This document shows positions 1 through 25,472 of a stretch of DNA of 25,836 nucleotides, in pieces. The translations under genes and the position numbers were made by a program. The stretch covers positions 1-25,836 of the IMG/VR virus record IMGVR_UViG_3300021432_000036; one strand, given 5' to 3'. Source of the stretch: a virus. Lineage: Duplodnaviria; Caudoviricetes. The notes beneath the pieces are model-generated. The model was not told the DNA's origin. It saw nothing but the letters and a program-made list of their open reading frames with translations, and searched no databases. Every line of letters begins with the position of its first letter. The first letter of the stretch is position 1.

Positions 1-822
1 CTCACCCTGCATCACTATTAATTCATCCTGACTATCATTACGTATGTCTGATACTTGTGATTCTTCTATCTTAAAGTCTTGTGTTAATATCTTTAACATT
101 ATCATTTCTGCCAAAGTAAATGACATTGGATATTCATCATCAACCGTAAATGGTCTTATTTGATTAACCAGTTGTACTTTGCCTGTACCTAAAAAAACAG
201 AATTAACCGCTGTAAACGTTTGTGGTGCGTTATATTGTATTGCATTATGTACAATAGTACCAGATTGTACTTGATAAAGAGTGCCTATTACAAGTGTTCC
301 AGACACTTTATCTGTAGTATCATAAATAGTCCCTTCTAAAGGATTGTCAAGGATAAGTATAGGATTAAGGAAGTCTACAAGGCTATTTACATAGATAGAT
401 GTACCTACTTTAAAATAATAATCGAATCTTGTCCTTAGTGAACCTTGTACAAAATCAAAAAATCTCGGTTGACTCACCGGATAATATGTAATCTGCTTGG
501 TCGCAGAACTCATACGATATATCCCAGCATTGCTCGGCAGTTGTACTACTGTAGGAATAGTTATCTTGCTCAAAGTAACTGATGAGATAGGTATGATCGG
601 ATCGTCCGCTGACGTTACTGTAGTAGTTGGGATCGAGCCCATATCTTGCAACCATGATGTATCCGTATCTAAAGTTTTTGAATAATTCTGTCTTATTGCT
701 ATTGCACGATAGCGATTGATTAGATGCTCTATGTGGCGTGGATTTACCCGAAAGTCCTTACTTATCTTAGATTTTTGTAGAAGTAAAAGAATATCACTCC
801 TATAATTTTTCAGCGAGGCCAT
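1..822 (-). CDS. crAss-like tail ring/connector structural protein (3' end runs off the window)
   Basis: Not in the ORF track. Read by hand from ATG at 822: MASLKNYRSDILLLLQKSKISKDFRVNPRHIEHLINRYRAIAIRQ...DDEYPMSFTLAEMIMLKIL...DIRNDSQD, open to base 1. The N-terminal helix, the C-terminal EYPM..D..ND pattern and the position in the structural module resemble crAss ring proteins. Confidence 0.7.
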   Translation of the reverse strand, partial: MASLKNYRSDILLLLQKSKISKDFRVNPRHIEHLINRYRAIAIRQNYSKTLDTDTSWLQDMGSIPTTTVTSADDPIIPISSVTLSKITIPTVVQLPSNAGIYRMSSATKQITYYPVSQPRFFDFVQGSLRTRFDYYFKVGTSIYVNSLVDFLNPILILDNPLEGTIYDTTDKVSGTLVIGTLYQVQSGTIVHNAIQYNAPQTFTAVNSVFLGTGKVQLVNQIRPFTVDDEYPMSFTLAEMIMLKILTQDFKIEESQVSDIRNDSQDELIVMQGE

Positions 823-848: not shown

Positions 849-859
849 ATAAAAATAAA

Positions 860-887
860 AGGGAGAAAACAATTAAGTTTTCTCCCT
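860..887 (-). terminator. Intrinsic terminator after auxiliary capsid gene 1
   Basis: Stem AGGGAGAAAAC/GTTTTCTCCCT, flanked by A/T tracts on both sides. Confidence 0.75.
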
Positions 888-912
888 CTTTTATCAACCA
901 TTTTCCTATCGA

Positions 913-1938
913 TTAAATGTTAATCATTGTAGGGAAGTTTGCAAGCATAGCCGCATCAAATGCGCCATAACCAGCAGCACCTTCATTAGCATACACTACT
1001 TGTACTCTACGTGCACCAACCAAAACTCCACTTGAAGCATTGTCAGGAGCAAGAATAGAATCAACAACTATATATTGAGTATAGTTATTAGATGCTATTA
1101 CCAACTCAAAAGTTGGGAAAGAGAACAAACCTTGACGTAAGTTATCGCTCAACAATTCTTTTTGAGGAACTTCATCAACTAATCTTGAACCAATACCACG
1201 ACTGATAACACCAGCAGTTGTAATAACTAAATCGCTTGCTGCAAATCCTTTAGTAACAAGTACTGTATTTGGACCTTGGAACAAACCTTTAGTATAAGCA
1301 GAGAAATAACCACCAATATCAATGATTCTTAGACCTAATCCTAATACTGGAGGAGCACTTGTTGTAGTTGTAGCACCACTTGTTTGACCAGTGATTACTT
1401 CTCCGTTTACGAATAAACCAGAGAATACTGCAATGGTCATATTTCCTGCTACATCGGATACAAAATATCCTTTTGCGCCAGAAGTTCCACCTGTTACTAC
1501 TTCATGTAAAACAAATGTTCCTACTACTGCACCATGTGTAATGGTAATAACAGAACCAGCATTAGCACGTGCCGATGCTGTATTGTTAATTTTTGTTGCA
1601 ATAGAGAAATAGATGTTGTATTTATCTGTTGCAGGGCTTCCCGATAATACCGCCGGAGCAGTAGCACCAAAGAATGTTAATTGATTTTGAGCACCTTCTC
1701 TACGATTACCAGTATTGCCTATTGCAACTTGGTATTTAGAGAATGCTACAATAGCTGCTGCACTTGTAACAGTTACCACTTGACGAATTTCTGCAATAGA
1801 GTGTGCTCTTGTTGCTGAAAGAACTTGTGTTTGAAGAACTGGAAACCAGCCAGAAACCTGTACGGACCCGGCAGTTAAAACAGAATCTCCTGCTACCTCA
1901 TTATTCAAGAGGTATGCACGAACTACTTTTGATTCCAT
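913..1938 (-). CDS. Putative auxiliary capsid/decoration protein (paralog A, 341 aa)
   Basis: Rich in G/A/T/V and beta-type, located between ring-protein genes downstream of the MCP. Colinear with the first ~342 aa of 3148..4827 (about two-thirds identical by eye). Contains two F..(G)E..TG.TSGA repeats typical of virion proteins. Confidence 0.6.
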   Translation of the reverse strand: MESKVVRAYLLNNEVAGDSVLTAGSVQVSGWFPVLQTQVLSATRAHSIAEIRQVVTVTSAAAIVAFSKYQVAIGNTGNRREGAQNQLTFFGATAPAVLSGSPATDKYNIYFSIATKINNTASARANAGSVITITHGAVVGTFVLHEVVTGGTSGAKGYFVSDVAGNMTIAVFSGLFVNGEVITGQTSGATTTTSAPPVLGLGLRIIDIGGYFSAYTKGLFQGPNTVLVTKGFAASDLVITTAGVISRGIGSRLVDEVPQKELLSDNLRQGLFSFPTFELVIASNNYTQYIVVDSILAPDNASSGVLVGARRVQVVYANEGAAGYGAFDAAMLANFPTMINI

Positions 1939-2007
1939 GATTAAAAAATATTAAATTTAATTATTTAGTTGTGTGCCCTATGGCACCACTAAATTAGTAA
2001 ATTTTTT

Positions 2008-2733
2008 TTAATCTATTATATTTATATCGGAAAGTTTCCCATTATATTTAATCACTCCTTCGTTGTGCGCTATGGCAGCATCCTTTTCATCTTCAAAATA
2101 TCCCAAATGTTTTACTTTATTATTTATGCGAACTGAAGCAACCCACTTACCTATTTTCATTTTTCGTGTTTCCTTATGCCAACTAACCCCCTTGTATTTA
2201 CTTCTTTTATAAGCATGAATAATATTGCATCTATCTGTAATTATCATTTCTTCCAATTTTTTGATAGGAATATTTATTTCATTAGGACAAAAATAGTCTG
2301 ATAATTCTAATCCTTTTTTATTATAGGCATGAGCCGCAGCCTCCTCTGTTCTATAATACCCACAAAAATGTTTCTTACCATTCATTCGGCAATATGATAA
2401 CCATGTTTTTGTTTCTTCTCTAAAATAGACACCTTTATATTTATTTTTTGTATTTTTTCGCTTTTCCTGATTATGACTATTGCCTTTTTTATCTGTTATT
2501 CTAATATTATCTCTTGTATTATTTAATTTTATTCTATCGATATGATCTGATATTTCACCTGATTTAATTTGTTTAATTAAATGGTGCATTTTTGTTTCTT
2601 TTCCATTTATTTTTGTTGCTGCATAACCACCCGAAATCCACCACCGATGTTTATTTATCCAATCATAATCTGAATCATCAACTTGGGCAAATTTACCATT
2701 TCCGTGTATTCCGTGTAATTTAATATGTTTCAT
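2008..2733 (-). CDS. Free-standing HNH homing endonuclease with two AP2 DNA-binding domains
   Basis: HNH motif MHH...DHIDRIKLNNTRDNIR...N..N. Two AP2 repeats: YKGVYF...CGYYRTEEAAAHAYN and YKGVSW...LGYFEDEKDAAIAHN. Confidence 0.9.
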   Translation of the reverse strand: MKHIKLHGIHGNGKFAQVDDSDYDWINKHRWWISGGYAATKINGKETKMHHLIKQIKSGEISDHIDRIKLNNTRDNIRITDKKGNSHNQEKRKNTKNKYKGVYFREETKTWLSYCRMNGKKHFCGYYRTEEAAAHAYNKKGLELSDYFCPNEINIPIKKLEEMIITDRCNIIHAYKRSKYKGVSWHKETRKMKIGKWVASVRINNKVKHLGYFEDEKDAAIAHNEGVIKYNGKLSDINIID

Positions 2734-2738
2734 ACTAT

Positions 2739-2966
2739 TTATTTTATTTTGTTTCCATATTTCTTACTTTCTGCATGACAATATCTATGTGGTATTTTAT
2801 ACCAGTATATTAATACTGGACTTTTGCCTTTATCTAAATACATTTTTCTAACACCAATAACTTTTCTAACTATTAATGCAGGACCATCATATTCTGATCC
2901 ATCATAAATTACTTGTGCATTTTTTGGCATTTTTTGTAATTCTTCAATTAATTTTTTGACTGTCAT
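2739..2966 (-). CDS. Small phage hypothetical protein
   Basis: The N-terminus MTVKKLIEELQKMPKNAQV is a common small phage-protein pattern. The gene ends 5 nt before the HNH start. Confidence 0.6.
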   Translation of the reverse strand: MTVKKLIEELQKMPKNAQVIYDGSEYDGPALIVRKVIGVRKMYLDKGKSPVLIYWYKIPHRYCHAESKKYGNKIK

Positions 2967-2994
2967 GTTTTTTGTTTTTAATTGTTTATAAAAT

Positions 2995-3089
2995 AAAAAA
3001 TCCCCTTGATAGTGCAGCTATCTCAGGGATTAGTAAAGGCTTGCGCCAATATTTTTTTGAATTGCTGCACAATTCTATGCTCAAATATA
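2995..3089 (-). promoter_or_regulatory. Promoter plus kissing-loop leader/attenuator element A
   Basis: TATATTTG at 3082-3089, then hairpin GAATT-GTGCAGC-AATTC, then a GGC-GCAA-GCC tetraloop hairpin, then hairpin ATCCC..GATA-GCTGCAC-TATC..GGGAT followed by a U tract. The two loops are complementary. Confidence 0.6.
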
Positions 3090-3096
3090 CAAAAAT

Positions 3097-3128
3097 AAAA
3101 TGGGATAACAATTAAGTCATCCCATTTT
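3097..3128 (-). terminator. Intrinsic terminator after auxiliary capsid gene 2
   Basis: Stem AAAATGGGAT/ATCCCATTTT. It has the same ACTTAATTGT core as the terminator at 860-887. Confidence 0.7.
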
Positions 3129-3147
3129 TTATTATTAATCCTATTAA

Positions 3148-4827
3148 TTAAGAGGTAGGAAGTACATAAGTACCTGCTCCAGCACCAGTGCTTATAGCTG
3201 CTGCCGCTGTTGACAATAATCTACCTTCAAGTTGCGTATTAGCACCAGTAGTTTGACCTGCTGGAGAAAGAGAGTTTCCTTTCCAGATAGTGTTTGCTCC
3301 TGTTGTTAATGCTGCGCCTGATGCGAAGAAAATCCTTGATGCAACTGCTCCATTTAGCAATACAAAAGTTGTATTGGCTCCTGTGGTAATCGCACCGGGG
3401 AATATAAATACATAATCTCCAACTCCGCTAAAGGTAACTGTTCCTCCTGCTCCTGTTCCCGCTGCACCTGTTCCTTTAAAGATACCCGGATGGAATATAC
3501 CCGGACCATTACCTACGTCAACAGTTTCTAAAACAACTGCTCCCGGAATAAAGCTAAATGTTGGTGTTAATCCTGTCAATGTAGCATAAGTATTTGCTGC
3601 ATCATTAACTGCCGGAGTAGATGCTGGGGCTGGATAATCTGCACCAGAAGTAAATACTACCGAACCAATTATTGCGCCTGCTTGTCCTATATCTCCATTT
3701 ACTGGTTGTGCTGGTGTTCCAACTGTAAGAGCACCACCTGTAAGAATAACATAAGTAGTAGCTAATCCTAAAGAATAAGCTGGTGCTATTGGAACACCAT
3801 TACTATTTACCATTGTAGGGAAATTGGTAAGCATAACGGCTTGAAATGCTGCATATCCCGGTGCGCCCTCGTTTACATATAAAACCTGTACACGTCTTGC
3901 GGCAACGGTCGTTCCTGCTGCTGCATCATTTGGAACATTGTTAATATAATCTACTACAATATATTCTGTGTAGTTATTTGCTGCAATGATAGCTTCTGTT
4001 GTAGGGAAAGAAAATAATCCTTGAGCTAAATTACTACTCAACAATTCTAATTTAGGTACATCATCCACTAATCTTGTTCCAATACCTCTGCTAATAACGC
4101 CAGCGGTAGTGATAACTAAGTCTAATGATCCCCAACCTCTTGTTGCAAGTACTGTATTTGGTCCCTGTAAAAATCCTTTAGTATATGAAGAAAAATATAA
4201 ACCTGTATCTGTAATTCTAAGTCCCAATCCAATAGTAGGAGGAGCAGTAGTAAGTGCAGTAGCACCACTTGTTTGTCCTGTGATAGTTTCACCACTAATG
4301 AAATCACCAAAATAGTTAGCAATAGTTAAAACACCTGCTGCGTCCAATACCAAATAACCCTTTGCGCCTGACGTACCGCCTGTTACTACTTCATTAAAAA
4401 TAAATGTTCCAACTGTTGCTGCGTGAGCAATAGTTATTACCGAACCAGCAGTAGCGTGTGCGGAAGGAGTTTGATTTATTTTTTTTGCAAGTGCAATATA
4501 AATATTGTGTTTATCCTGAGCAGCGTTACCAGACAATAAAGCCGGAGCTGTTGCACTAAAGAAATCTATTGGAGTTTGTGCGCCTTCTCTGCGGTTTCCT
4601 GTGTTACCAATGGCAACTTGATAAATTGTGAATGGCGTAATTGCAGCGTTACTTGTAATAGTAACAACTTGTTTTACTTCTGGCGTAGAAGTAATTTTAA
4701 TAGCCGAAAGAACATTGGTTTGTTTTATAGGGAACCAGCCCGTAATATATACGTAACCTGCCGTTAAGACTGAATCTGCGGGGGTTTCATTATTGAGCAA
4801 TTGCGCTCGGACAACTTTTTCTCCCAT
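3148..4827 (-). CDS. Putative auxiliary capsid protein (paralog B) with C-terminal DUF3494 ice-binding-type domain
   Basis: aa 1-342 are paralogous to 913..1938. aa ~350-559 carry DUF3494 hallmarks in order: LGLATTYVILTG, VNGDIG, AVNDAANTY, FHPGIF, YVFIFPGAITTGA, VLLNGAVASRIFF, WKGNSL, LEGRLLS. Confidence 0.8.
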   Translation of the reverse strand: MGEKVVRAQLLNNETPADSVLTAGYVYITGWFPIKQTNVLSAIKITSTPEVKQVVTITSNAAITPFTIYQVAIGNTGNRREGAQTPIDFFSATAPALLSGNAAQDKHNIYIALAKKINQTPSAHATAGSVITIAHAATVGTFIFNEVVTGGTSGAKGYLVLDAAGVLTIANYFGDFISGETITGQTSGATALTTAPPTIGLGLRITDTGLYFSSYTKGFLQGPNTVLATRGWGSLDLVITTAGVISRGIGTRLVDDVPKLELLSSNLAQGLFSFPTTEAIIAANNYTEYIVVDYINNVPNDAAAGTTVAARRVQVLYVNEGAPGYAAFQAVMLTNFPTMVNSNGVPIAPAYSLGLATTYVILTGGALTVGTPAQPVNGDIGQAGAIIGSVVFTSGADYPAPASTPAVNDAANTYATLTGLTPTFSFIPGAVVLETVDVGNGPGIFHPGIFKGTGAAGTGAGGTVTFSGVGDYVFIFPGAITTGANTTFVLLNGAVASRIFFASGAALTTGANTIWKGNSLSPAGQTTGANTQLEGRLLSTAAAAISTGAGAGTYVLPTS

Positions 4828-4863
4828 GATTTTTAATTTTTAGTTTTTTGCTTTATAGCATTA

Positions 4864-4871
4864 CAAATATA
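4864..4871 (-). promoter_or_regulatory. -7 element TATATTTG
   Basis: TAnnTTTG 37 nt upstream of the ATG at 4827. Confidence 0.55.
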
Positions 4872-4878
4872 ATGCTTT

Positions 4879-5652
4879 TTATGATTTATTTGCTTCTGCT
4901 TCCGACCATTTAGACTTTGAGTAATTTTCTACTTCTCCAATAATTATAGACGCAGCCAATTTAGCTAATTCCTCATGAGTGCTTACTGGCAAATCAGTAT
5001 TAACTATATTAATTACAGTACCAATACCTGTTAGTGCAGTATTAACTGCAATAAATGTCTGTCCTACCTGATAGGTAATAGCATTATGTGTTACGGTATT
5101 TGTAGTAACATAATATGTTAATCCAATAGTAAGAACAGCCGGACCCGCCACTATAGGAACGGTAGATACAAATACTATTGCAGGAGCAATTAGATAGGTT
5201 AATATGGCACTACTAAAAGTACCAGTACCACCAAAGTCTACATTGATTCCATTTTGATCTTCAAAGTGTACAGGATATTCTATTGTGGGTTCTTGGAATG
5301 TATTACTCTTTATAATTCTATATTCATCATAAGATACCATACGACTACTTTTTTGTATTCCATTAACTATTGTATCAAAGCTGAGTTCGTGTTTGTAATC
5401 AGATGGGTAAGTAACTAAATTGCCTGAGGGAGTTAATGGAGCTGTCTTTACTAATGTACGAAGGTCATCACGTACCCTTTGAATAAATTCAAACGAATAC
5501 ATTTTATGCTGCTTGATATTATCATACCTGTCATAAAAGAATTGATCTATTGCTGTATTAACAGCATTGTCCTTTTCAATCTCTGTGAAGCGAGCAGAAC
5601 GGGCACGATCCACCCATTGCATCATTCTATTTTCTAATTCTACAATATTCAT
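4879..5652 (-). CDS. crAss-like tail ring protein
   Basis: Motifs FEFIQRVRDDLRTLVK and DLPVSTHEELAKLA resemble conserved crAss ring proteins. It is the second gene after the MCP. Confidence 0.7.
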   Translation of the reverse strand: MNIVELENRMMQWVDRARSARFTEIEKDNAVNTAIDQFFYDRYDNIKQHKMYSFEFIQRVRDDLRTLVKTAPLTPSGNLVTYPSDYKHELSFDTIVNGIQKSSRMVSYDEYRIIKSNTFQEPTIEYPVHFEDQNGINVDFGGTGTFSSAILTYLIAPAIVFVSTVPIVAGPAVLTIGLTYYVTTNTVTHNAITYQVGQTFIAVNTALTGIGTVINIVNTDLPVSTHEELAKLAASIIIGEVENYSKSKWSEAEANKS

Positions 5653-6770: not shown

Positions 6771-8243
6771 TTAGTTAGGAGATTTGTATATAATACCACA
6801 TGACATAGTATTGTAAATGAAGATACCATCTTCTTTCAGCATATTGAACTCAATAGCATCAGTAGAAGATACAACATCTCTGTTATCACCAGTTACACCA
6901 TTAAGGTATGCTGATACCATAGAACGATTAATTCCATAAGCACCTTTAGTCATAATCTCAATGTTGCTACGTCCTGCAACAGTACCCATATCAAGGAAAA
7001 TCATCATAGATGATTGTAGCAATTTACCATCGCTTCCACGTTGAGTAAAACGCTCTTCATCATCAAACATTGGATGTTTAACAGTAACGATTTGATTACC
7101 GTGAATGTTAAACACGTCGAAGTTACCTCCTACTGGAATATCTTCTCCTCCGATAGTTTGTGTTTGACCTGCATTTTGGTTAAGATTTGTACGACCACCC
7201 ATGAAATTAACACGGTAATCTCTAAACAAATCTTGTAGTGTTCCGTAACCATCAGTTCCAGTAACTACATACCACATTTTACCATATACGCTATTAGATT
7301 TCTTTTCTAATTGACGCATAAAGTCAGAGATGTCATCGATAGTAGCTGAACCATCAATGCCAGAACCGAACATTTCGTTTCCACCTTTGATTTGTTCTAA
7401 GATACCATCACCGATAACAACTTGTTCTCCAGTTTCAGGATCAATAACGTTAGAAACAGCTAACAAGTTATTGTTAGAATCTCTCATTGTTGATTTACCG
7501 AAGATTTTATTCCACTCATCTTCCATCATAAATTGAATACGTGCTTGACGTTCTTTTTCAAAGATCCATCCTTTAGCACCATTGTATTCATACCAAAGTA
7601 CATCAGTAAGTGCAGAACCAGAAAGGGCTACTGTCTTACGTTGAATACCTAAGTGGTTAATGAATTGGTCAGGATAATGAGTACGACCAAAACCACGAAG
7701 CGAACGTTCGCTATAAGCAGTAAATTGACCGAAACATGTTTTATCTCCTGACTGTGGAGTTACAGATGCAGCAAAGTTAAATACTGATTTGTCGATAGTT
7801 TGGAAACTATAAACGAAATTACCGGGACCTCCTGCTGGAAGACCTTGAACACGAGCTTGCAATCCATCCCAAAAAGTAACAATCATACCTTGTACGATAT
7901 AATTATCCTTTAAAGAAAGTTGGAAAGAACCATCAAGTCCAGAAGTACCCACTTGAGCACCAATAACTGTTTTCTTTTGAATACGACCTAATACATTGTA
8001 ACGGAAAGCATGATCTCCAATCAGTTTGTCTGCTGGAATTTTGCCAATCTTGTTACGTGTATTCATTCCTTGAAGATCCCAAGGAGATTTTGCACCTGAT
8101 ACGATCAAAGTTGAAAGCATACGAGGTTCTGCATACTGAATCACATCACGAATAACTGGTTTCTTTTGTTGATTTTCAGTAAGGTTACTTGATACTGTGC
8201 AGGTTTCATCGAACCTACCAGCATACACTTGAATTTTTCCCAT
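6771..8243 (-). CDS. Major capsid protein (crAss-like)
   Basis: 490 aa. Synteny is terL-portal-scaffold-MCP. Motifs YSERSLRG, NHLGIQRK, VVTGTDG and KHPMFDD fit crAss-type HK97-fold MCPs. Confidence 0.85.
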   Translation of the reverse strand: MGKIQVYAGRFDETCTVSSNLTENQQKKPVIRDVIQYAEPRMLSTLIVSGAKSPWDLQGMNTRNKIGKIPADKLIGDHAFRYNVLGRIQKKTVIGAQVGTSGLDGSFQLSLKDNYIVQGMIVTFWDGLQARVQGLPAGGPGNFVYSFQTIDKSVFNFAASVTPQSGDKTCFGQFTAYSERSLRGFGRTHYPDQFINHLGIQRKTVALSGSALTDVLWYEYNGAKGWIFEKERQARIQFMMEDEWNKIFGKSTMRDSNNNLLAVSNVIDPETGEQVVIGDGILEQIKGGNEMFGSGIDGSATIDDISDFMRQLEKKSNSVYGKMWYVVTGTDGYGTLQDLFRDYRVNFMGGRTNLNQNAGQTQTIGGEDIPVGGNFDVFNIHGNQIVTVKHPMFDDEERFTQRGSDGKLLQSSMMIFLDMGTVAGRSNIEIMTKGAYGINRSMVSAYLNGVTGDNRDVVSSTDAIEFNMLKEDGIFIYNTMSCGIIYKSPN

Positions 8244-10372: not shown

Positions 10373-12625
10373 TTACGCTCCCTTACCTTGATTTTTTATA
10401 AAATCATTCGCTGCTTGCTGTGAATTTAACACATGTTGATTCTGCGCCTTCACCGTTTCAGCGGCAATTTTATTTGTTCCTTTTTGCACTTCCATTTCTT
10501 TTTGATGTTCAAACATTCTCTCATTCATTCCAGCTTGTCCTTCCTGAGCTTGTTGTGCCTGTTGCGCCTGAGCCTGTTGTTGTGCCTCTTGTTGTTGTTG
10601 ATTCATTGTCTGCACTTCTTTCCATCCTTGCTTAACGCAAGCAACCGCTTCTGTCATAGTTTCTGCAAGTTCAAAACCAAGAGCATCCTGTACTCTCATC
10701 TCTTTACTATTAAGAGCAAATTCCATAAGGCCACGAATACGATTTTTAATCTCCTCTTCTTTTCTATTATCAGCTAAATAATATCCGTAATCATCGTAAC
10801 TAATATCTTTTGTAATCTTTAAGAATCCTACCGCATCATCACCTATTATCATTCCCAATTTATCAGGATGAGTAAATACGGTAATCTTAGAATATTCCGC
10901 AACACGTATCAAAATATTTTCTACATACCTATCGAAATAATAATTAAGAGGCTCTGTAATATTTCTTGATCCCTGTACTGCCAACTGGGCATTACCGGAT
11001 GTTTGACTTGCCGCTATTTCACCTTGTCTTTCGTTAGATATTCCAGACAAACGGTCTGCCATATCCTGAAGTTGAACTTTTAGAGTAAGCAGTACTTGCA
11101 TGTTAGAAGAAATACCTAAATCTATTTCACGAATAGAGCCCTGTACCTCTACGCTTGTTCCACTCATATTGCCATCAGCAGAAGAATCATAATCATAAAT
11201 ACCATCGTTGGTAAGTTTGTGCATTACATCCTTCATGGTCTTCCCTTTTGGAAGATATGCTCTATCGTATGTAACCACTTTACCTTTTGCTTTAGCAAGT
11301 TCCCTATTGATCTGGAACATGATAATATTATATATCCTACTTATATTTTCTAATGATTCTAAAATAGAAATACGTATGCCATCCCTTGTATTGAGTAGCA
11401 TGCCAGTATAAGAATACATAGTATTAAATGGATTATCTAAAGAGCCAATTATATTCGGTTTCTCACGCATATTAACGTACATGTCTGCACCTATACGTGT
11501 TGCTTCCCAGATAATCTTTTTGTATTTAGTTTCTATTGTATATTTTCCTTTATTCACATCACTTTGTATCTGGCTATAATTTTTATTATAATAGTCAAGT
11601 GATATAGATTGACGGTAAGGTTCTGCATCAATATTTCGTGGGTCCTTTGATACTTTAGTATAGAATGGCTTTAAAGCATACCACTCTAAAGTATAAACCA
11701 TAACTGCTAAATTCTTTTCTACTAACCGATAGTTCATCCTCCATTGTTCGGAAGATGTATTTACGTTTTGATCCCAACGATCTCTTATCTCATAAAGATT
11801 TTTCTTTTGGTCATCGCTTAATTCAAATTCAGAAAGTATGTCGTGAATGAACATCAAACGAGCTTCTCCCAAATAAGGTGTTTGTCCTAAAAACGGATCA
11901 CGTTCAATCTCTTCCCATATACCATTACGGGGATCAATTTCTCTGAACCGCACATTTCCATCCTTGTCTATTGACACTTTACCAAAACATTCTGCTGTGA
12001 TAAGTACATCTAAATAGTTAGAAGCGAAACGAGTTTTTACATCCTGACCGTAATGATTATTTTCTATAAAGTTTTTTATTAAAGTTTGCATAACAACTTC
12101 GTTACGCTCCTTAATATTAAAGTCTGGCTTTGCGGTAGCTTGATCTGCGCCATCTGCCTGTTTAACTTCCGGCATAGGCATGCCTTCAAAAACATCGTAA
12201 CCTACTAATTGTTTTTGTTTTTCTAATTGCTCTTGCGCTGCTTGTCTGCCTAATAAAAATTCGTAGTTCTGAAGTTTACGTGAACGGGCTTCCTTGTTGA
12301 TAGTATATACTGTTCCCGAAAGTGGTCGTGATAAAAATTCTCCTACCAATCCATCTATCTTAGGGCGTGCCATACGATAGTCTATGTAATTGGCTAAATT
12401 CTCCTTCCCGTATGTCCTGTTCAAATACTCGAAATTCCTTGCGTCCGTAATACCATTGTAGGAATCCATAAGCAATGTCATCTTCTTTATCTGCCTTCTG
12501 CGGTATCCGTTATAGTTATTAACTGCGTAATCAATGCAGTCTTTACAAACCTGCTCTTGCTTATCTATATTCTTGTGTTCGTAAATCTGGGTTCCAACGA
12601 ACCGCTCAGGAGTGCTACTTGACAT
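10373..12625 (-). CDS. Portal protein
   Basis: 750 aa, between terL and the MCP. Contains PKIDGLVGE, LSGISNERQG and a Q-rich C-terminal barrel. Confidence 0.9.
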   Translation of the reverse strand: MSSSTPERFVGTQIYEHKNIDKQEQVCKDCIDYAVNNYNGYRRRQIKKMTLLMDSYNGITDARNFEYLNRTYGKENLANYIDYRMARPKIDGLVGEFLSRPLSGTVYTINKEARSRKLQNYEFLLGRQAAQEQLEKQKQLVGYDVFEGMPMPEVKQADGADQATAKPDFNIKERNEVVMQTLIKNFIENNHYGQDVKTRFASNYLDVLITAECFGKVSIDKDGNVRFREIDPRNGIWEEIERDPFLGQTPYLGEARLMFIHDILSEFELSDDQKKNLYEIRDRWDQNVNTSSEQWRMNYRLVEKNLAVMVYTLEWYALKPFYTKVSKDPRNIDAEPYRQSISLDYYNKNYSQIQSDVNKGKYTIETKYKKIIWEATRIGADMYVNMREKPNIIGSLDNPFNTMYSYTGMLLNTRDGIRISILESLENISRIYNIIMFQINRELAKAKGKVVTYDRAYLPKGKTMKDVMHKLTNDGIYDYDSSADGNMSGTSVEVQGSIREIDLGISSNMQVLLTLKVQLQDMADRLSGISNERQGEIAASQTSGNAQLAVQGSRNITEPLNYYFDRYVENILIRVAEYSKITVFTHPDKLGMIIGDDAVGFLKITKDISYDDYGYYLADNRKEEEIKNRIRGLMEFALNSKEMRVQDALGFELAETMTEAVACVKQGWKEVQTMNQQQQEAQQQAQAQQAQQAQEGQAGMNERMFEHQKEMEVQKGTNKIAAETVKAQNQHVLNSQQAANDFIKNQGKGA

Positions 12626-12663: not shown

Positions 12664-13182
12664 TTAAATTATATTAGGACTGCAAAATTCCCCAAAATAT
12701 TTTTCACATGCCTTATTATATGCAATCGCAGCATGCTCTTCTGTTTTATGTGATCCTAAATGAATAGCTATGCCATTAACCTTTATTCCACATTTCCATG
12801 ATTTATAAATATATAAACTTCCATCTTTTCTTATTCGTTTTTTAATTGCTAAAGAAACACCTTTATATTTTGATGAAGCATTTTTTTGTTTTCTTTTATT
12901 CATTGCATTTTGACTCGTAGTGCTTGGCCTTAAATTATGCCTTTGATTATCAAGTCCATTTTTATTTTTATGATCTGTATTTTTTTGACCAGTAATATCT
13001 TGGTGCATCATGCTATATTTTCTTATATCGTCTTCATAAACAGATCTTCTTGCATATAAATTATTCTCGTCTGGAAGTAAATGGTAATTATACTTACTTA
13101 ACCTTTCATAGTCTTCATCATCAACCATTGCAAAATATTTTCCTTTACTTGGCCCTTGTTTAGATAATTCAATTAATTTCAT
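12664..13182 (-). CDS. Free-standing HNH homing endonuclease with AP2 domain
   Basis: HNH motif MHQ..DHKNKNGLDNQRHNLR..QNAMN. AP2 motif SSKYKGVS...HLGSHKTEEHAAIAYN..FGEF. Confidence 0.9.
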   Translation of the reverse strand: MKLIELSKQGPSKGKYFAMVDDEDYERLSKYNYHLLPDENNLYARRSVYEDDIRKYSMMHQDITGQKNTDHKNKNGLDNQRHNLRPSTTSQNAMNKRKQKNASSKYKGVSLAIKKRIRKDGSLYIYKSWKCGIKVNGIAIHLGSHKTEEHAAIAYNKACEKYFGEFCSPNII

Positions 13183-13292: not shown

Positions 13293-15314
13293 TTATGTAA
13301 TCTTCCCTTGTGCTATTAAGCGAAGAAATGGATCTTTGATTTCCGACAACTTTTCTTTTGATACTATTGGTCGAAGATGTCCTCCCTCTCTTGAATATGT
13401 TGTTAAGTCATAAGGGTCCTGTGAAATTTCCTGTTGTAAATTTATTGGCTTTTTATTTATATCAGTATGCCTCATAAGTGCTATACCTAAAGCATCAGCA
13501 GCATCCCAATCGGAATCCTTTTGTAACTGATCGTAGTTAAGCAAGTCATCTATCAGATATTTAAACCAGATTTTGTGTCCGTTATATGCAACAAATGTTT
13601 GTAGTAATGATACCATGCGAGGCTTACTAAGTCCAGTAAGGGCTACACCAAATTCATGGGTCTGCTGTGAATTTTCACTTTCAAAACTTGTTGGGCGTGG
13701 TGCTAAATATTTTTGGCAGCCTTTGTCTTTGTAGTATTGTATCACAGCAGCCTTTGCTATATCCACCAAAGTATTTCCTATAAGATTATAATAGATAGAA
13801 AGTTTCAAACAATTTTCATAAAATATTTCTTTGTGCTTGGGGCGATTACGTATCATGGCAATAGGGGACATACTATCCAATCCGGGTATCATGTGTTCAC
13901 GTATCAACACAACCATAGATCCTAATGATTTACTTGTTTGTGAACTGTCCTGATCGTAACTGTCAAGCCCAGAACAATATAAATTCTTGTATCCTAAAAC
14001 AGGAGTATATCCCGGACGAATAAATATTATATTATCTTCCGGCTCTAATTCATCAGCAATCTTTGCTTTAACTTTAAATGGTGTCTTAATACTTCCATCA
14101 TCATTCTTTTCCCACTCCAAAATATATTTTAAGTATGGAGTTGTTGGTGAACTGTCAATAGCATATCCTTGATTGGATAAAATAGTACTGTCGAAATTAT
14201 TACTACTGAAAGTTAAGAATGCTTCCTTGTCTGTTAATGGATAATTCTGTAAATAGTCATAATACTTTTTCTTATTGCGCCCTTTAACAAGTTCTCGTCT
14301 TGTTTCCATTATCACCTTCTCTGCCTCATGTATATCTTCGCAACCGCTAATATTATTATTGCTATCTTTTAATTTTTTTATATTGGGTATGTGTTCTTCC
14401 AATTTGCCCTTCTCATTTTTACTTCCTCCGAAGTACCCAACCATCATACGGGGGCCCATAATTTCAAACTTCATTAATCCGTAATTGTCTGCCTCCAGCC
14501 ACATATCCCTAAAGTCGTGTGATGAAGATTTTATATCTCCTCCAGTGCCGTATAGATACGGAGTTCCGACCATCTTTGTTCCTACCATGAAGCAAGCCTT
14601 AGTAGCATTATATCCTGCTATCAAGTGATCGAACTGCCCGGCCTCCTCAAATATTACATCATTGAACGCATTACCCTTAAAAATATCCGGGTTGTTGTAC
14701 ATGGTCTCGCAGATAACAGTATTAAGACTACCTCTGCTTACCTCCCCGGTATTTGTCATTTCTGTATATCCACAAACCAATTCTTTTGCATTATCTTTTA
14801 AATAGTGCATTTGTAATTCTTTTGGCAAATCTTTATTTACCTTCTTCACCTTATCGAATAATTCCTCACTATACGTTTCTTGCCCGGCGCATATACCTGC
14901 TTTGTATCCTGAATTAGAAAAACGTATTCCATAATCTAAAATAGATTTGCTCTTTTCGCTCATACCTTTACGCCTTGCCTTGATACATATAATTCCTTTG
15001 TTATCTTTTTTTGCTTGCTCTATGAAGTTGAAGTATTCAAGATCTATATCTACAAATTCAGGATGGTGAAGTCCACGACCTACTGTGCTGATAAGAATAA
15101 AATTCAGGTAGTAATAATATCTTCCGGGAATGAATACGCCTCCGGTGGTGTAACCATTTAGGATTCTATGTAGTTGTTCTTTCCACCATTCTTCGTGGGC
15201 CATTGTACCAACAATGGTATGGTTGAGTGTAGAATTTGCGTAATCTGGAATACCATTAACAGCTATCTCGTTGGGGAAAAAACCACGCTTTTTTATTAAT
15301 GGTGTATATGGCAT
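13293..15314 (-). CDS. terL: Terminase large subunit
   Basis: Walker A-like IKARRKGMS, Walker B VIFEEAG, coupling motif YGTGG, and nuclease motifs GLDSYD and DWDAADALG. Confidence 0.92.
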   Translation of the reverse strand: MPYTPLIKKRGFFPNEIAVNGIPDYANSTLNHTIVGTMAHEEWWKEQLHRILNGYTTGGVFIPGRYYYYLNFILISTVGRGLHHPEFVDIDLEYFNFIEQAKKDNKGIICIKARRKGMSEKSKSILDYGIRFSNSGYKAGICAGQETYSEELFDKVKKVNKDLPKELQMHYLKDNAKELVCGYTEMTNTGEVSRGSLNTVICETMYNNPDIFKGNAFNDVIFEEAGQFDHLIAGYNATKACFMVGTKMVGTPYLYGTGGDIKSSSHDFRDMWLEADNYGLMKFEIMGPRMMVGYFGGSKNEKGKLEEHIPNIKKLKDSNNNISGCEDIHEAEKVIMETRRELVKGRNKKKYYDYLQNYPLTDKEAFLTFSSNNFDSTILSNQGYAIDSSPTTPYLKYILEWEKNDDGSIKTPFKVKAKIADELEPEDNIIFIRPGYTPVLGYKNLYCSGLDSYDQDSSQTSKSLGSMVVLIREHMIPGLDSMSPIAMIRNRPKHKEIFYENCLKLSIYYNLIGNTLVDIAKAAVIQYYKDKGCQKYLAPRPTSFESENSQQTHEFGVALTGLSKPRMVSLLQTFVAYNGHKIWFKYLIDDLLNYDQLQKDSDWDAADALGIALMRHTDINKKPINLQQEISQDPYDLTTYSREGGHLRPIVSKEKLSEIKDPFLRLIAQGKIT

Positions 15315-15326
15315 AATAATATTTTG

Positions 15327-15651
15327 TGGAGCTGGTGGGAATCGAACCCACGTCCAATATATTTAATTAATTGATTTTATTTAAAGGCTTAGGATATGAT
15401 TTACTAACCATCCAAAATCGGGGTCGATAATTTACCAACCTCTCCACCAGTTAGTTTAATGTTCTAACAAACCACAGAGCTTCTGTTCCCAAAAACTGCT
15501 TACGCAGCCGCTCTCATTTCGGTTATCATTTCGATAACTGGCACATTTTTAGTTTTGCCATTTAATTGTGAAAATAATTTATTAATCGGATATTAACAGC
15601 CGATGCCTTAACCAAAGAACGAACCTATACTGTCAAAAGCCTGTCAGCCCC
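15327..15651 (-). ncRNA. ssrA: tmRNA (transfer-messenger RNA)
   Basis: 5' end GGGGCTGA-CAGGCTTTT-GAC. 3' T-arm GTGGG-TTCGATT-CCCAC followed by CAGCTCC-A. The acceptor stem GGGGCTG/CAGCTCC has the G3-U alanine determinant. The tag frame at 15559-15500 reads GKTKNVPVIEMITEMRAAA*. CCA is not encoded (CAA follows). Confidence 0.93.
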
Positions 15652-18782: not shown

Positions 18783-19091
18783 TTACCAATAACGTTTTTT
18801 GCGTTTCTTCTTCTTTTTGAGTTTAACCTTTCGGGCTAAAGATATTTTCTTCTTGTATTTGCCCTTTTTATTCTTCACATATCCATACTCTTTTTGATGG
18901 CAATTTTTACATAAAATCTTTAAGTCTTCCGGTTCTTCATTAAATATATTTTTATATGTTAAATGATGAATTTGCAACCTTTTAGTATTGCCACAATCTT
19001 CACATTTTTTACCCCTAATGTTAAACAAATCAATTCTAATTTGCGCCCACTCATTACTATTTAAATAATCCTTATATTTTTTGTCAATCAT
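18783..19091 (-). CDS. Small Zn-binding HNH endonuclease (McrA/gp74-like)
   Basis: YLNSNEW...CEDC...LQIHHLTY...DLKILCKNCH, followed by a basic tail. Confidence 0.85.
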   Translation of the reverse strand: MIDKKYKDYLNSNEWAQIRIDLFNIRGKKCEDCGNTKRLQIHHLTYKNIFNEEPEDLKILCKNCHQKEYGYVKNKKGKYKKKISLARKVKLKKKKKRKKRYW

Positions 19092-21105: not shown

Positions 21106-21127
21106 ACTAACTAAAATCACAATCGCC

Positions 21128-21340
21128 ATGGACAAATATAAAATAGTATCAAACTTTGAAGGCAGCTATATAAGTGTTGACCAAGACAATAATTTTACAT
21201 ATTGTGGTAATTGGGCAAATAAAATATTAAGCATGTTTATTAAACTTAATATACTTAATAATACAGCCGAAAAAATTAATGTAATTAAAAACGTTGTTAT
21301 ACCAAAAACAAGCGGATTTGTTATTTACGGAACTATTTAA
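21128..21340 (+). CDS. Hypothetical protein (70 aa)
   Basis: AATCGCC-ATG start. Confidence 0.65.
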   Translation: MDKYKIVSNFEGSYISVDQDNNFTYCGNWANKILSMFIKLNILNNTAEKINVIKNVVIPKTSGFVIYGTI

Positions 21341-21365
21341 TATTAACCTTTTAAACCTAATCGCC

Positions 21366-21422
21366 ATGAAAACTAAAACAATTACGACATTGCAGAGCTT
21401 GCCGAGATGGCACAAAAATTAA
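21366..21422 (+). CDS. Micro-ORF (18 aa, MKTKTITTLQSLPRWHKN)
   Basis: AATCGCC-ATG start. Confidence 0.35.
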   Translation: MKTKTITTLQSLPRWHKN

Positions 21423-21447
21423 GAAAATAATTTAAAACTTTACAGCC

Positions 21448-21618
21448 ATGAAAACTAATATAGATTTGACCCTAAAGAGTGGTGCAAAGATAACCGTACA
21501 ATGGATATTTGACGATCATATTAATTACTTACTATTAAATGATTCAGAGCCTTGGGCTTATTTGCAAGCAGACAAAGGAACTGACAAATTCAATGAAATA
21601 GTAGAACTTTTGCATTAA
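21448..21618 (+). CDS. Small hypothetical protein (56 aa, MKTNIDLTLKSG...)
   Basis: Read by hand. ACAGCC-ATG start. Confidence 0.6.
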   Translation: MKTNIDLTLKSGAKITVQWIFDDHINYLLLNDSEPWAYLQADKGTDKFNEIVELLH

Positions 21619-21649
21619 TATTAACTCACATAACTAATAACTAATCGCC

Positions 21650-21799
21650 ATGAAAAAGATAAAATTAAATTCAACCGTTTTATGGTATAACCGGAAATTA
21701 TGCAGCCTATTTTATGACTACAAAATGACACGCCAGTTTCCGCAATCGTGCCTAAATAAACAGGATTATATTAACTTCTTAAAACAAATACAGCCATGA
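21650..21799 (+). CDS. Small hypothetical protein (49 aa, MKKIKLNSTVLWY...)
   Basis: AATCGCC-ATG start, with an ATGA overlap to the next ORF. Confidence 0.55.
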   Translation: MKKIKLNSTVLWYNRKLCSLFYDYKMTRQFPQSCLNKQDYINFLKQIQP

Positions 21800-21876
21800 A
21801 TAATCTAAATATATGTATTTGCACTACTTCAATTGAAGGTGAATTTATTCATTTACCAGACTTTTATTTAAACTAA
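21796..21876 (+). CDS. Micro-ORF (26 aa, MNNLNICICTTSIEGEFIHLPDFYLN)
   Basis: ACAGCC-ATG start, translationally coupled to the previous ORF. Confidence 0.4.
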   Translation: MNNLNICICTTSIEGEFIHLPDFYLN

Positions 21877-21896
21877 CCCAAAAAACCACAATCGCC

Positions 21897-22271
21897 ATGA
21901 AAACCGTAAAAAGAAATTCCAAAGGCATAATAACCCATACCACAAAAGACGGTATTAAATGGGATAAAGTGAATAACATTTATAATAAAGCTCAGCATAC
22001 AGCGGGCGAATGGAAAATATTATTCGGAAATTATATTCATTTCGCAACAATCAATAAAGATGCGATGACTCGTATCTGTGAAATTAATATAACAGAAGAT
22101 TCGCCTCAAATAGATGAAGCAAGAGCCAATGCCAAACTGATAGCAGCAGCACCGGAATTATTGAAAGCCCTTGAAAATGTACTGCAATTTAATTGTTTGA
22201 TTCCAGATACAACTGTACGTAGAGAAGTGTTGTATCAAATACATCAGGTAATTAAAAAAGCAACTGAATAA
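21897..22271 (+). CDS. Conserved phage hypothetical protein
   Basis: HTAGEW...ANAKLIAAAPELLKAL is a widespread phage motif. Confidence 0.8.
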   Translation: MKTVKRNSKGIITHTTKDGIKWDKVNNIYNKAQHTAGEWKILFGNYIHFATINKDAMTRICEINITEDSPQIDEARANAKLIAAAPELLKALENVLQFNCLIPDTTVRREVLYQIHQVIKKATE

Positions 22272-22292
22272 TTAACTAATACCACCAACGCC

Positions 22293-22502
22293 ATGAAAAC
22301 CATAAAAAGAATCGACATAAAAGAATGTCCACCACAAGCCACTCACGCTAAATTTAATCCAACAAACGAGTTTATAGAATTATTTTATAAAATCGAGAAA
22401 GATGAAATTAAATTTTTATCGACTTGTGGAGGAGGGTGGGGACATTCCGACAGCGCAGACAAAGACAAAGATTTTATAAACAAATTGATTAAAATAGTTT
22501 AA
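22293..22502 (+). CDS. Hypothetical protein (69 aa)
   Basis: ACGCC-ATG start. The PPQATH motif is common in small phage proteins. Confidence 0.65.
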   Translation: MKTIKRIDIKECPPQATHAKFNPTNEFIELFYKIEKDEIKFLSTCGGGWGHSDSADKDKDFINKLIKIV

Positions 22503-22547
22503 TCGAAGATGCAGTTAATTGTATATAAATATAAATAGGGAGAAAAC

Positions 22548-22585
22548 TAACGGGCACGATTATCGTGGCGATAGTCTGCCCGTTA
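22548..22585 (+). promoter_or_regulatory. Long intergenic hairpin (processing or stability site?)
   Basis: TAACGGGCA-C-GATTATCG-TGG-CGATAGTC-TGCCCGTTA. No U tract. Confidence 0.45.
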
Positions 22586-22618
22586 ACCCCTTGTTAAATT
22601 CACTTAAACTTATTAGCC

Positions 22619-23284
22619 ATGATTAAAATAGAAATAAAATCAATATTAGGTAAAGTTCTTTTTGAATACAAAAAAGAAGATAATACCATACTGAAAACAG
22701 TCGTAGAAGCCGTAAATAAAGGCGCAGACTTACAAGGCGCATACTTACAAGACGCAGACTTACGAGGCGCATACTTACAAGGCGCATACTTACAAGACGC
22801 AGACTTACGAGGCGCATACTTACAAGGCGCAGACTTACAAGACGCAGACTTACGAGGCGCATACTTACGAGGCGCAGACTTACAAGGCGCATACTTACGA
22901 GGCGCAGACTTACGAGGCGCATACTTACGAGGCGCATACTTACAAGGCGCAGACTTACAAGACGCAGACTTACGAGGCGCATACTTACGAGGCGCATACT
23001 TACGAGACGCATACTTACAAGACGCAGACTTACGAGGCGAAAAAATTTTAAAAGCTATTGTATTTAATGGGTTATATGATTATATCATTATTCCATACAT
23101 AACAGAGAAAGACGAAAAACGTGTTAAAATGGGGTGTTACGATAGAAGCCTTGAAGAATGGAATAAAGATTTTTGGAATAATACAAAAGAATTTCCAAAC
23201 GATAATTCAGAAAAAAGTAATTTACGTTTAATGGCCTTTGAAACTGCTAAAAAATGGTTTGAAATTGTAGAGCCTAAAAAATAA
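22619..23284 (+). CDS. Pentapeptide-repeat protein
   Basis: 21 A(D/Y)L(Q/R)(G/D) repeats between an N-terminal IEIKS..GKVLFEY domain and a C-terminal MGC...LEEW domain. Confidence 0.9.
   Translation: MIKIEIKSILGKVLFEYKKEDNTILKTVVEAVNKGADLQGAYLQDADLRGAYLQGAYLQDADLRGAYLQGADLQDADLRGAYLRGADLQGAYLRGADLRGAYLRGAYLQGADLQDADLRGAYLRGAYLRDAYLQDADLRGEKILKAIVFNGLYDYIIIPYITEKDEKRVKMGCYDRSLEEWNKDFWNNTKEFPNDNSEKSNLRLMAFETAKKWFEIVEPKK
22721..23035 (+). repeat. 21 x 15-bp tandem repeat GRCGCAKACTTACRA
   Basis: Counted directly. Only three positions vary. Confidence 0.95.
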
Positions 23285-23309
23285 ATTAACTCACTTAAAA
23301 CTTATTACT

Positions 23310-23654
23310 ATGAAAACTATCGAAAAAATAAATAACATTGATGTTGAAATAGAATGGCGTTTTATAGAAAAAATGGACTCGCACGATTCTAACTGGTTTG
23401 AATGGGCTTGCGAGGGATTTGATAAAGACGGGAATAAATATCAGGCCAATTGCCAAGCAGACGGAACCGAGCCATATGATTTGCATGACAATGTAACCGA
23501 TGTTGAATTATTAAAATTAGATTCTGAAATAAATAAAGCATGGTTGAATTATAGAAAAAATAATATTAAACATATTGAACCATTAACCGCTTTAACTTAT
23601 TACGGAATCTTTACAGATGCCTACATGATAGCAATTAAAAAAGAAACATTATGA
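23310..23654 (+). CDS. Hypothetical protein (114 aa)
   Basis: In the ORF track, co-oriented with the operon. Confidence 0.65.
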   Translation: MKTIEKINNIDVEIEWRFIEKMDSHDSNWFEWACEGFDKDGNKYQANCQADGTEPYDLHDNVTDVELLKLDSEINKAWLNYRKNNIKHIEPLTALTYYGIFTDAYMIAIKKETL

Positions 23655-23785
23655 CAACATTTATAAAGATATGCTCACACCTCAAGTCTGCACATTGCCT
23701 ATCCTATAAAATAGTTAATGACAGACTAAAAATAATTGAACTTGTTAAACAATTACAATCTAACTATAAAATCAACACGCCATGA
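23651..23785 (+). CDS. Small hypothetical protein (44 aa, MTTFIKICSHL...)
   Basis: ATGA overlaps at both ends. Confidence 0.5.
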   Translation: MTTFIKICSHLKSAHCLSYKIVNDRLKIIELVKQLQSNYKINTP

Positions 23786-23949
23786 AACCCTCAGAAATAT
23801 ATACGGAAATATCCGAACAATTAGATAAATTAGATTTGTCCTTTTCTCAAAAGTTAGAAGTCAGAAATATAATTTCAGACGTACTAAATAAAAGTATTTC
23901 AAAAGACATCGAAAACTTGAAAAATAAATTAGAAACCTTTCACCTTTAA
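23782..23949 (+). CDS. Small hypothetical protein (55 aa, MKPSEIYTEISEQL...)
   Basis: ACGCC-ATG start. Confidence 0.6.
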   Translation: MKPSEIYTEISEQLDKLDLSFSQKLEVRNIISDVLNKSISKDIENLKNKLETFHL

Positions 23950-23962
23950 AATATTAATCGCC

Positions 23963-24103
23963 ATGAGACACTACATCACACATTCAAACATCCGGGAGGA
24001 CTTAACTATTGAAATTCTTGCCGAGATATTCGCAGTGAAGAGATATTTTTCTCACCTGTTAATTGATAGATACATAATTGACTTACAAATACAAAATAAT
24101 TAA
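23963..24103 (+). CDS. Small hypothetical protein (46 aa, MRHYITHSNIRE...)
   Basis: AATCGCC-ATG start. Confidence 0.5.
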   Translation: MRHYITHSNIREDLTIEILAEIFAVKRYFSHLLIDRYIIDLQIQNN

Positions 24104-24108
24104 TAGCC

Positions 24109-24258
24109 ATGAAACAAAAAACTTACAGAGACTTAGACTATAACAAGGTTATAGACTTTGCCGATAAAAAAGGATTAAACACTCAAACAGAACAGAACTA
24201 CAAAGAGGTAGCCCAAATGATGTTTGAGGAAATGAAACGTAACCACAAAAAGAAATGA
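24109..24258 (+). CDS. Small hypothetical protein (49 aa, MKQKTYRDLDY...)
   Basis: TAGCC-ATG start, with an ATGA overlap to the next gene. Confidence 0.6.
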   Translation: MKQKTYRDLDYNKVIDFADKKGLNTQTEQNYKEVAQMMFEEMKRNHKKK

Positions 24259-24641
24259 ACCACGTTTATAACGTTGGCGAAGCTGCGCCCGAAGGCAAGC
24301 CCGTCCCCACAGAATATAAATGTTGTTTATGCTTAGAAGAAAAGGAAGCAAAGGACTTGATCGCTATTGATAGCATTAAAAAGATAGTGTGTAAAGATTG
24401 TCTACAAAGTGAAGATAGTACCTTTGATGACATATACGAACTCTTGCAGAAGAGAGCCAACATAAACGAAGAAAGCAACCCTGCTATATGCGCCAAGCTG
24501 CAAATAGAATTAGAGGCCAAGATAGGACGTGCCGTTGAATGGGTAAGTGAATGTTGCAGCACACACGCACCTAACGAGCAATTTGAACTAAGGCAAATAT
24601 GCGGTAAATGTTTGGAAAACGCTCGATACATAGGGCTGTGA
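24255..24641 (+). CDS. Putative double zinc-finger protein
   Basis: Cys clusters CCLC...CKDC and SECC...CGKC. Confidence 0.6.
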   Translation: MNHVYNVGEAAPEGKPVPTEYKCCLCLEEKEAKDLIAIDSIKKIVCKDCLQSEDSTFDDIYELLQKRANINEESNPAICAKLQIELEAKIGRAVEWVSECCSTHAPNEQFELRQICGKCLENARYIGL

Positions 24642-24687
24642 TTTACAGGCGAAGGCGTTTTTATTAACATGAAATAACTATAAACGG

Positions 24688-25002
24688 GTGGCTAAAAAAC
24701 TTAATCCTAAAATCTTTATCGGTATGAAAAATGAAAAATATTTTGCTTTGCTCAAAGAAACATTTGGGGAAGACTACGCTAAATTGATGCTCAAGGAAAG
24801 ACAGGACGCAGAAGTAAGCGAACGCAATGCCCGTATAATCCTAATAGAGGATATAATGAAAGCCCGTAAACTAATAGGGTTGCCACCAAGCGTTAAAATG
24901 TTTGACCACCTCTATGATATGCCATTCGATCAATTACAACTTGCCTCAGTAATTTGGCACGATGAAGTATATTATCATAATTCTAAAACTAAAAAACCAT
25001 GA
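24688..25002 (+). CDS. Hypothetical protein (104 aa)
   Basis: GTG start, with an ATGA overlap to the next gene. Confidence 0.6.
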   Translation: MAKKLNPKIFIGMKNEKYFALLKETFGEDYAKLMLKERQDAEVSERNARIILIEDIMKARKLIGLPPSVKMFDHLYDMPFDQLQLASVIWHDEVYYHNSKTKKP

Positions 25003-25199
25003 GCAAGCCCAAAATAGAACTAATAAAACGTACCAATAAAACGGGGAATGTTTGGTATGATGTACGGGTAAACGATCAGACTGTTGACTTTTATCTTACT
25101 TTAGAAAAGGCAACCGAAAGGTATCATTTACGTTGTGCCGTACTTTCAGACCAAGAAAAAGAAGAAGTAATACTAACTAACAAAACCAAAACACCATGA
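24999..25199 (+). CDS. Hypothetical protein (66 aa)
   Basis: Translationally coupled on both sides. Confidence 0.65.
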   Translation: MSKPKIELIKRTNKTGNVWYDVRVNDQTVDFYLTLEKATERYHLRCAVLSDQEKEEVILTNKTKTP

Positions 25200-25468: not shown

Positions 25469-25472
25469 TTAA

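Follow-up and report, generated by a model that had tools for sequence, protein, structure and literature searches.

Why does a crAss-like phage encode two copies of what appears to be the same capsid protein, one plain and one extended by a domain of the ice-binding type? The question arises from a stretch of 25,836 nucleotides (IMG/VR record IMGVR_UViG_3300021432_000036, referred to as the window), whose minus strand carries the head-tail module of such a phage. The module comprises the genes for the large terminase subunit (13293-15314), the portal (10373-12625) and the crassvirus major capsid protein (6771..8243; PF23898, E 5.5e-21), the presumed docking partner of the auxiliary capsid protein (AUX). 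A ring protein 3/4-like gene (4879..5652; weak match to PF25710, E 0.028; same position as in loci L110 and L191) lies directly upstream of the fusion gene, and the ring protein 2 gene (1..822; PF25702, E 1e-16) directly downstream of the plain AUX paralog (913..1938, 341 residues), which was assigned by model, Foldseek and VIA alignment. All of these genes are on the minus strand, as is the HNH/AP2-type endonuclease gene between the paralogs (2008..2733; phrog_99, E 1e-42); beside the latter is an ORF of 75 residues (2739-2966). A near-identical IMG/VR contig extends the module by a 246-residue gene, a 1519-residue muzzle-like gene and a cargo-like gene. Position and PHROG matches to "virion structural protein" are the basis for the names ring 1, muzzle and cargo. 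With Crass_capsid and CrAss_Ring_2 Pfam matches, portal, terminase and muzzle-like gene, the surroundings are those of a crassvirus head-tail module. The sole public run containing the stretch bears the label soil metagenome and gives no temperature; the brine channels proposed in the first-pass annotation have so far found no support.

Other elements of the window were recorded in passing. A tmRNA gene (15324-15651, minus strand; Rfam RF00023, 77.7 bits; ARAGORN tag of 19 residues) is located just upstream of the large terminase subunit gene. On the plus strand, a pentapeptide-repeat protein with a 15-nt tandem array is encoded at 22619-23284, and a start-codon context recurs ahead of many small early ORFs at 21113-25579 (repeat families D3, D6-D9). 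There are three HNH-type endonuclease genes (2008-2733, 12664-13182 and 18783-19091, minus strand), two of them within the virion module. The intergenic stretch 2978-3147, from the terminator of the fusion to the 75-residue ORF, contains more inverted repeats and has no Rfam match. Ring and muzzle-like proteins (L001 9117-15610; window 4879-5652) have in common a short inserted domain with the motif V..G.I.HNAI.Y, perhaps another repeated surface module.

The fusion gene (3148..4827, minus strand) is a single open frame of 559 residues, whose parts were delimited by means of the ORF list, Pfam, the paralog alignment and matches to solved ice-binding proteins (IBPs). An AUX domain of the gp36 type (residues 1-342; 3802..4827; paralog and family alignments) is followed by a short linker (about residues 343-349; 3781..3801), where the paralog alignment ends and the alignments to solved IBPs begin (residues 349-352), and by a DUF3494 or IBP-1 beta-solenoid with brace helix (about residues 350-559; 3151..3780; PF11999, model, Foldseek). 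Residues 1-341 match the product of ORF 913..1938 with 231/341 identities (68%), an E-value of 5e-155 and one gap, which bears out the duplication of a structural protein noted on first reading. The identity is even along the length (57-80% per 30 residues), and the AUX domain of the fusion retains every invariant column of the close-family alignment. A hydrophobic N-terminal stretch is absent (heuristic value of 1.2 versus 1.7-3.5 in cellular DUF3494 proteins), and a Pfam scan found no Ig, T9SS or PEP-CTERM domains in the fusion. The protein thus does not have the composition of a secreted bacterial ice adhesin, that is, a signal peptide plus a cell anchor or Ig stalk.

Two assembly records, possibly derived from a common sample, contain the fusion: the near-identical contig holds the same frame and shows one difference to the window in 9,938 bases. 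A database protein (P0001) has a Glu at residue 2, where the window has a Gly. That the fusion is an assembly chimera is very improbable. The contigs of one run lack cover at about 2625-5520, a gap that is non-probative. Against a chimera stand the two assembly records, one public run that contains 96% of the sampled words of 900-4900, and the junction itself, which is in frame and leads to a hairpin homologous to that of the paralog. The anatomy, an auxiliary capsid paralog of a crassvirus with a complete DUF3494 domain at its tip, is well supported. AUX proteins, DUF3494 domains and phage-head display domains were each known already.

The identity of the shared part was deduced from its predicted fold. 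It has no Pfam family and no PDB match by sequence, and an AUX profile of 11 sequences retrieved no crAss001 chain from the PDB at E<=10. Models were built separately for the plain paralog (from 11 sequences; pLDDT 80.4) and for the DUF3494 domain alone. A Foldseek search of the PDB with the former yielded three matches at E<=0.001, all of them crAss001 capsid chains, among them 7qof_a with an E-value of 1.3e-8. Chain a of 7qof was taken as gp36 on the basis of its length of 333 residues and of the paper. In the comparison with the crAss001 auxiliary capsid protein, which had been proposed as a check, the plain paralog aligned end to end (VIA: residues 3..341 on 6..333 of 7qof_a, Z 12.0, rmsd 4.1, 269 aligned), at 12-13% identity and a TM of 0.47. 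FliD/FliC chains also match residues ~48-250 of the plain paralog, whose model displays a two-domain fold of PH and flagellin/FliD-like type; for the fused copy, this fold is assumed on the basis of 68% identity. The top BFVD matches of the plain paralog include proteins of the crassviruses phi14:2, Fpv1 and cr128_1. By predicted fold and synteny, the shared part is thus predicted to be a crassvirus auxiliary capsid protein, in line with the earlier reading as a capsid decoration protein. Both paralogs are taken as AUX, the fused copy by virtue of its identity to the plain one and of the invariant columns it keeps.

According to the passages on the capsid in PMC10172136, gp36 is an auxiliary capsid protein of 333 residues present in nine copies per asymmetric unit on the surface of crAss001, and its PH domain (residues 1-74 and 238-333) makes three-fold assemblies in the outer layer. 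The window protein resembles gp36 (PDB 7QOF; PMC10172136) in its end-to-end predicted fold and its length (341 versus 333 residues), and also in the place of its gene, between ring 3/4 and ring 2 and downstream of the major capsid gene. Unlike gp36, it is duplicated and has a beta-barrel insert, and one copy bears a C-terminal DUF3494 extension of 217 residues. The small insert lies at about residues 127-204 of both paralogs (window 913-1938 and 3802-4827). It recurs in hundreds of viral contigs (L003-L081), in tail-tube-like, baseplate and adaptor proteins, and it is doubled in some AUX homologues, for example P0008 and P0060.

The assignment of the extra C-terminal part to DUF3494, made on first reading, was confirmed by profile and model. 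The PF11999 (Ice_binding) search proposed there scored 48.1 bits with an E-value of 1.5e-12, the curated gathering cut-off being 28.7. Sixteen solved ice-binding or antifreeze sequences match the fusion at E<=1 (best 5uyt, E 1.5e-9, residues 350-550), and a domain profile of 12 sequences found 25 PDB sequences at E<=0.001 (best 1e-47). As modelled (pLDDT 94.8, pTM 0.91), the domain is a complete discontinuous beta-solenoid braced by a long helix (59-73). Foldseek returned 31 matches at E<=0.001, and all those listed are ice-binding or antifreeze proteins; the best is EfcIBP (6eio; TM 0.84 over 221 columns), and 7bwx reaches a TM of 0.81. Like EfcIBP (6EIO), AnpIBP (7BWX), IBPv (5UYT) and FfIBP (4NU2), the domain is thus predicted to combine a beta-solenoid with a brace helix (TM 0.74-0.84). 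Those four proteins are cellular and mostly secreted, come from microbes of cold habitats and have measured activity. In contrast, the fusion domain, a putative ice binder at 22-26% identity to them, has no signal peptide and is joined to a predicted capsid protein.

Where did the domain come from? The first-pass annotation had pointed to the DUF3494 proteins of cold-adapted Flavobacteria, a link that has so far found no support: the domain groups with phage-type proteins and not with Bacteroidota T9SS adhesins. The highest identities are to P0050 (66%), P0051 (62%), P0053 (59%) and L091 (58%). L091 is encoded between a prohead protease and a major capsid gene; the genes at L083, L087 and L097 come just after a capsid-type gene, and L096 occupies that slot after terminase and portal. 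For L092/L093, L084, L094, L095 and L098, PHROGs named no structural neighbour. In P0124, a tail sheath protein of 1144 residues, a DUF3494 domain is inserted close to the N-terminus, and the N-terminal domain of P0050 is similar to clusters with 93-96% viral members. In a quick tree of 123 domains, the window domain belongs to a group of 35 rows with 9 of the 11 phage loci and none of the 30 cellular architectures. In a careful tree of 40 rows, hand-chosen from these 123, it falls into a 22-row group (97/90) with 10 of the 12 rows with phage evidence and none of the 12 with cellular architecture; the labels, author-assigned from locus context or from signal peptide, T9SS, IPTL-CTERM or Ig domains, leave 12 rows of this group without label and context. 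Signal-peptide-like N-termini occur in two members of the clade (P0062, P0120). Of 25 proteins compared with PHROGs, 19 had no family there, mostly clade members without context. When 185,579 prokaryote genomes were scanned with a pattern from the domain alignment, one distant match (34% over 93 residues) appeared within the limits of that pattern, and an atlas search with the whole fusion returned bacterial DUF3494 clusters only. Since the closest relatives are mostly phage-type proteins and not Flavobacterium adhesins, the domain likely came from a phage donor, that is, from a pool of phage cassettes. Two adjacent DUF3494 genes of different subgroups occur in several phage-type loci (L083 4679-6627, L092 6170-8621, L093 6165-8615, L094 59-2218).

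The putative ice-binding B-face was located by profile alignment to 7bwx/7bwy, with strands mapped from the definitions for AnpIBP (PMC7277481, section 3.4). Its six strands (residues 365-370, 454-459, 478-483, 505-510, 523-528 and 543-548; 3184..3735, minus strand) turn 24 residues outward, all of which are Gly, Ala, Ser or Thr; column 2 reads AAGAAA and column 4 TSTTTG. A505 and T508 align with S153 and T156 of AnpIBP, for whose B-face a passage of PMC7277481 gives 70% small residues. Sequences from polar-marine and glacier sources have a steady Ala in column 2, as does the fusion, and PF11999 is also found in ice-free habitats (both from passages of PMC12337378). Thirty cellular DUF3494 controls have a mean small-residue fraction of 0.91, with 11/30 at >=0.95. 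The mean of the phage clade is 0.85, with several members down to 0.5-0.75 owing to charged or bulky residues, so an ideal ice face is not a constraint on the whole clade. The fusion (1.0) is, together with P0050, one of the two cleanest in the clade. Because cellular controls are similarly rich in small residues, a flat face says little about ice and was rejected as evidence for it; ice binding is consistent with the face but not demonstrated by it.

The flanks of the two AUX genes suggest a common past. A terminator-like hairpin (3097..3128, minus strand; repeat family D19) lies 3' of the fusion gene and another (857..890, minus strand) 3' of the plain paralog. They are related (70% over 40 nt, identical loop), and both are followed by an identical octamer (3082-3089 and 841-848). 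It is therefore likely that gene and terminator were duplicated together, the cassette having been inserted after the coding end of one copy, ahead of its terminator. The octamer resembles the Bacteroidetes -7 promoter, as given in a passage of PMC6847099, and also occurs about 37 nt upstream of the fusion gene (4864..4871, minus strand). The window contains 9 matches versus 3.5 expected, a number reached by 1/100 shuffles for a pattern picked post hoc; a sigma-70 promoter scan found no excess (34 versus 35.9 expected). The paralogs have diverged to a dS of about 1.5 with a dN/dS of 0.16. Both copies are thus under purifying selection, which agrees with the initial view of a plain and a tipped version of one subunit. 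The branch of the fused copy is longer (0.33 versus about 0.14), which is compatible with relaxed selection. A sister relation of the two paralogs is neither supported nor rejected (p-AU 0.46). The GC3 value is 0.157 for the DUF3494 domain and 0.18-0.22 for the paralogs.

How unusual the fusion is was assessed with word-index searches and the best 150 of 991 matches among 1.84 billion representatives. At least 120 AUX-profile columns were covered by 62 proteins, and 60 remained after removal of P0034 and P0149, which match via the small barrel only. Among these 60 retrieved members, which include the two of the window and stem from the best 150 of 991 matches, the fusion is the only one with a DUF3494 domain. 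One other (P0126) consists of a full AUX and a LamG-like tail of 246 residues, whose Pfam score is just below the cut-off; the family therefore seems to tolerate C-terminal additions. The LamG part of P0126 was also found separately in four viral contigs (L183-L186). A capsid-protein scan identified seven other loci, in three of which the AUX slot was reached (L191 and the near-identical L192/L193, L192 being the contig of L110); each has a single plain AUX without DUF3494. A tblastn search of 50,697 GenBank phage records with the DUF3494 domain and the plain AUX gave no match, and viral-contig scans with AUX alignments found almost nothing but the small barrel motif. In Azobacteroides phage ProJPt-Bp1, the adjacent genes PJPA_024 and PJPA_025 encode proteins of 350 and 319 residues, the lengths of two ProJPt-Bp1 fold matches. 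Crassviruses thus likely have a precedent for tandem AUX paralogs in this phage, genes and UniProt entries being paired by length; unlike the window fusion, neither gene is long enough for an added domain. As the fusion is a singleton, a benefit draws no comparative support.

T4 Hoc is a display protein with an adhesion-type domain on the phage head. The fusion differs from it in the fold of the domain, which would be borne by a high-copy auxiliary protein. The head fibres gp21 and gp29 of crAss001, as described in parts of PMC10172136, likewise place an accessory domain of adhesion type on the capsid surface, as is predicted here; the fusion has a different fold, carried by a high-copy auxiliary protein and not by a separate fibre. 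Literature searches, in which few subscription papers were covered, found no case of a virion-borne DUF3494 domain. The main text of a survey of Arctic prokaryotic IBP architectures (PMC9957290) never mentions virus or phage, and in PMC12923769 ice-binding appears only within a reference. DUF3494 genes encoded by phages are known from Central Arctic vOTUs: main-text passages of PMC11515562 call three viral PF11999 genes auxiliary and assign them to host cryoprotection. These passages mention no virion fusion; Table S14 of that paper could hold some.

The best explanation of these findings is a mixed outer layer, in which the tipped AUX would anchor the particle to ice when the soil freezes. 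The domain would have arrived as a cassette from the virion protein of another phage. Most likely, both AUX proteins would be made late and share the sites of the shell, the AUX part docking on the major capsid protein as crAss001 gp36 does. The tipped subunits would then project the solenoid from the shell by way of a linker of about seven residues, their flat Ala/Gly/Thr faces pointing outward and gripping ice. An outward projection is suggested by the location of the gp36 C-terminus in the PH domain of the outer layer, the direction being drawn from the text of the paper and not from coordinates. The reason for retaining the plain copy may be that three PH domains come together at every local three-fold site, where fully tipped trimers would crowd. 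Judged from the models, display on the capsid is probable. Given display, ice is favoured somewhat beyond even odds as the working ligand, by analogy; it is the likeliest single ligand since it has been demonstrated for the solved relatives. Taken together, these two estimates give the whole reading a probability of about 0.45. A more specific picture is more tentative: a soil crassvirus whose capsids are partly coated with many copies of an active ice-binding domain and which, as the soil freezes, attach to ice or restrain its growth around them. The domain would stem from a phage-specific cassette pool, from which unrelated phages splice copies into head proteins and tail sheaths.

If the domain is displayed, it could instead serve general adhesion, to extracellular polysaccharide, minerals or the surface of hosts, as other display domains of phage heads do. 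This is rather unlikely. In its favour, the soil label carries no cold information, PF11999 occurs in habitats free of ice according to PMC12337378, the AUX slot has accepted a LamG-like domain, and several relatives in the phage clade have charged or bulky residues on the B-face. The fusion itself, however, has one of the two cleanest faces of that clade, lacking aromatic or charged residues of the kind common at glycan sites, and the listed solved matches at E<=0.001 are all titled ice-binding or antifreeze.

A role away from the particle, not mainly as a virion feature but as a soluble or released protein shielding host or lysate against ice, would fit the host-cryoprotection reading of the three viral genes in the passages of PMC11515562, as well as the promoter-like octamer and terminator-like hairpin that the fusion gene has of its own. 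It is nevertheless quite improbable: there is no signal-peptide-like stretch, the fusion partner is a conserved capsid-protein domain encoded within the virion operon, and the phage relatives are located in head and tail proteins. Improbable as well, if slightly less so, is a cassette that was gained by recombination at the end of the duplicated gene and is a neutral or near-neutral passenger, or a mere spacer or shield. The singleton status (1/60 retrieved, from the best 150 of 991), the HNH endonuclease gene between the paralogs and the faster evolution of the fused copy point in that direction. Against it, the frame is intact and the fold complete, the GC3 of the domain is near that of the paralogs, and dS and dN/dS indicate that both copies have long been kept.

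In this fusion, the crassvirus auxiliary protein appears as a display platform. DUF3494 genes of phages have so far been read as serving host cryoprotection; here, such a domain is fused to a predicted capsid-surface protein. The untipped paralog alongside constitutes a natural control, and a solved crassvirus structure allows the place on the capsid to be inferred, so that a direct test of whether virus particles bind ice becomes possible. If the virions do bind ice, this would bear on the survival and transport of phages in freezing soils and on the ligands of DUF3494 domains outside polar microbes.
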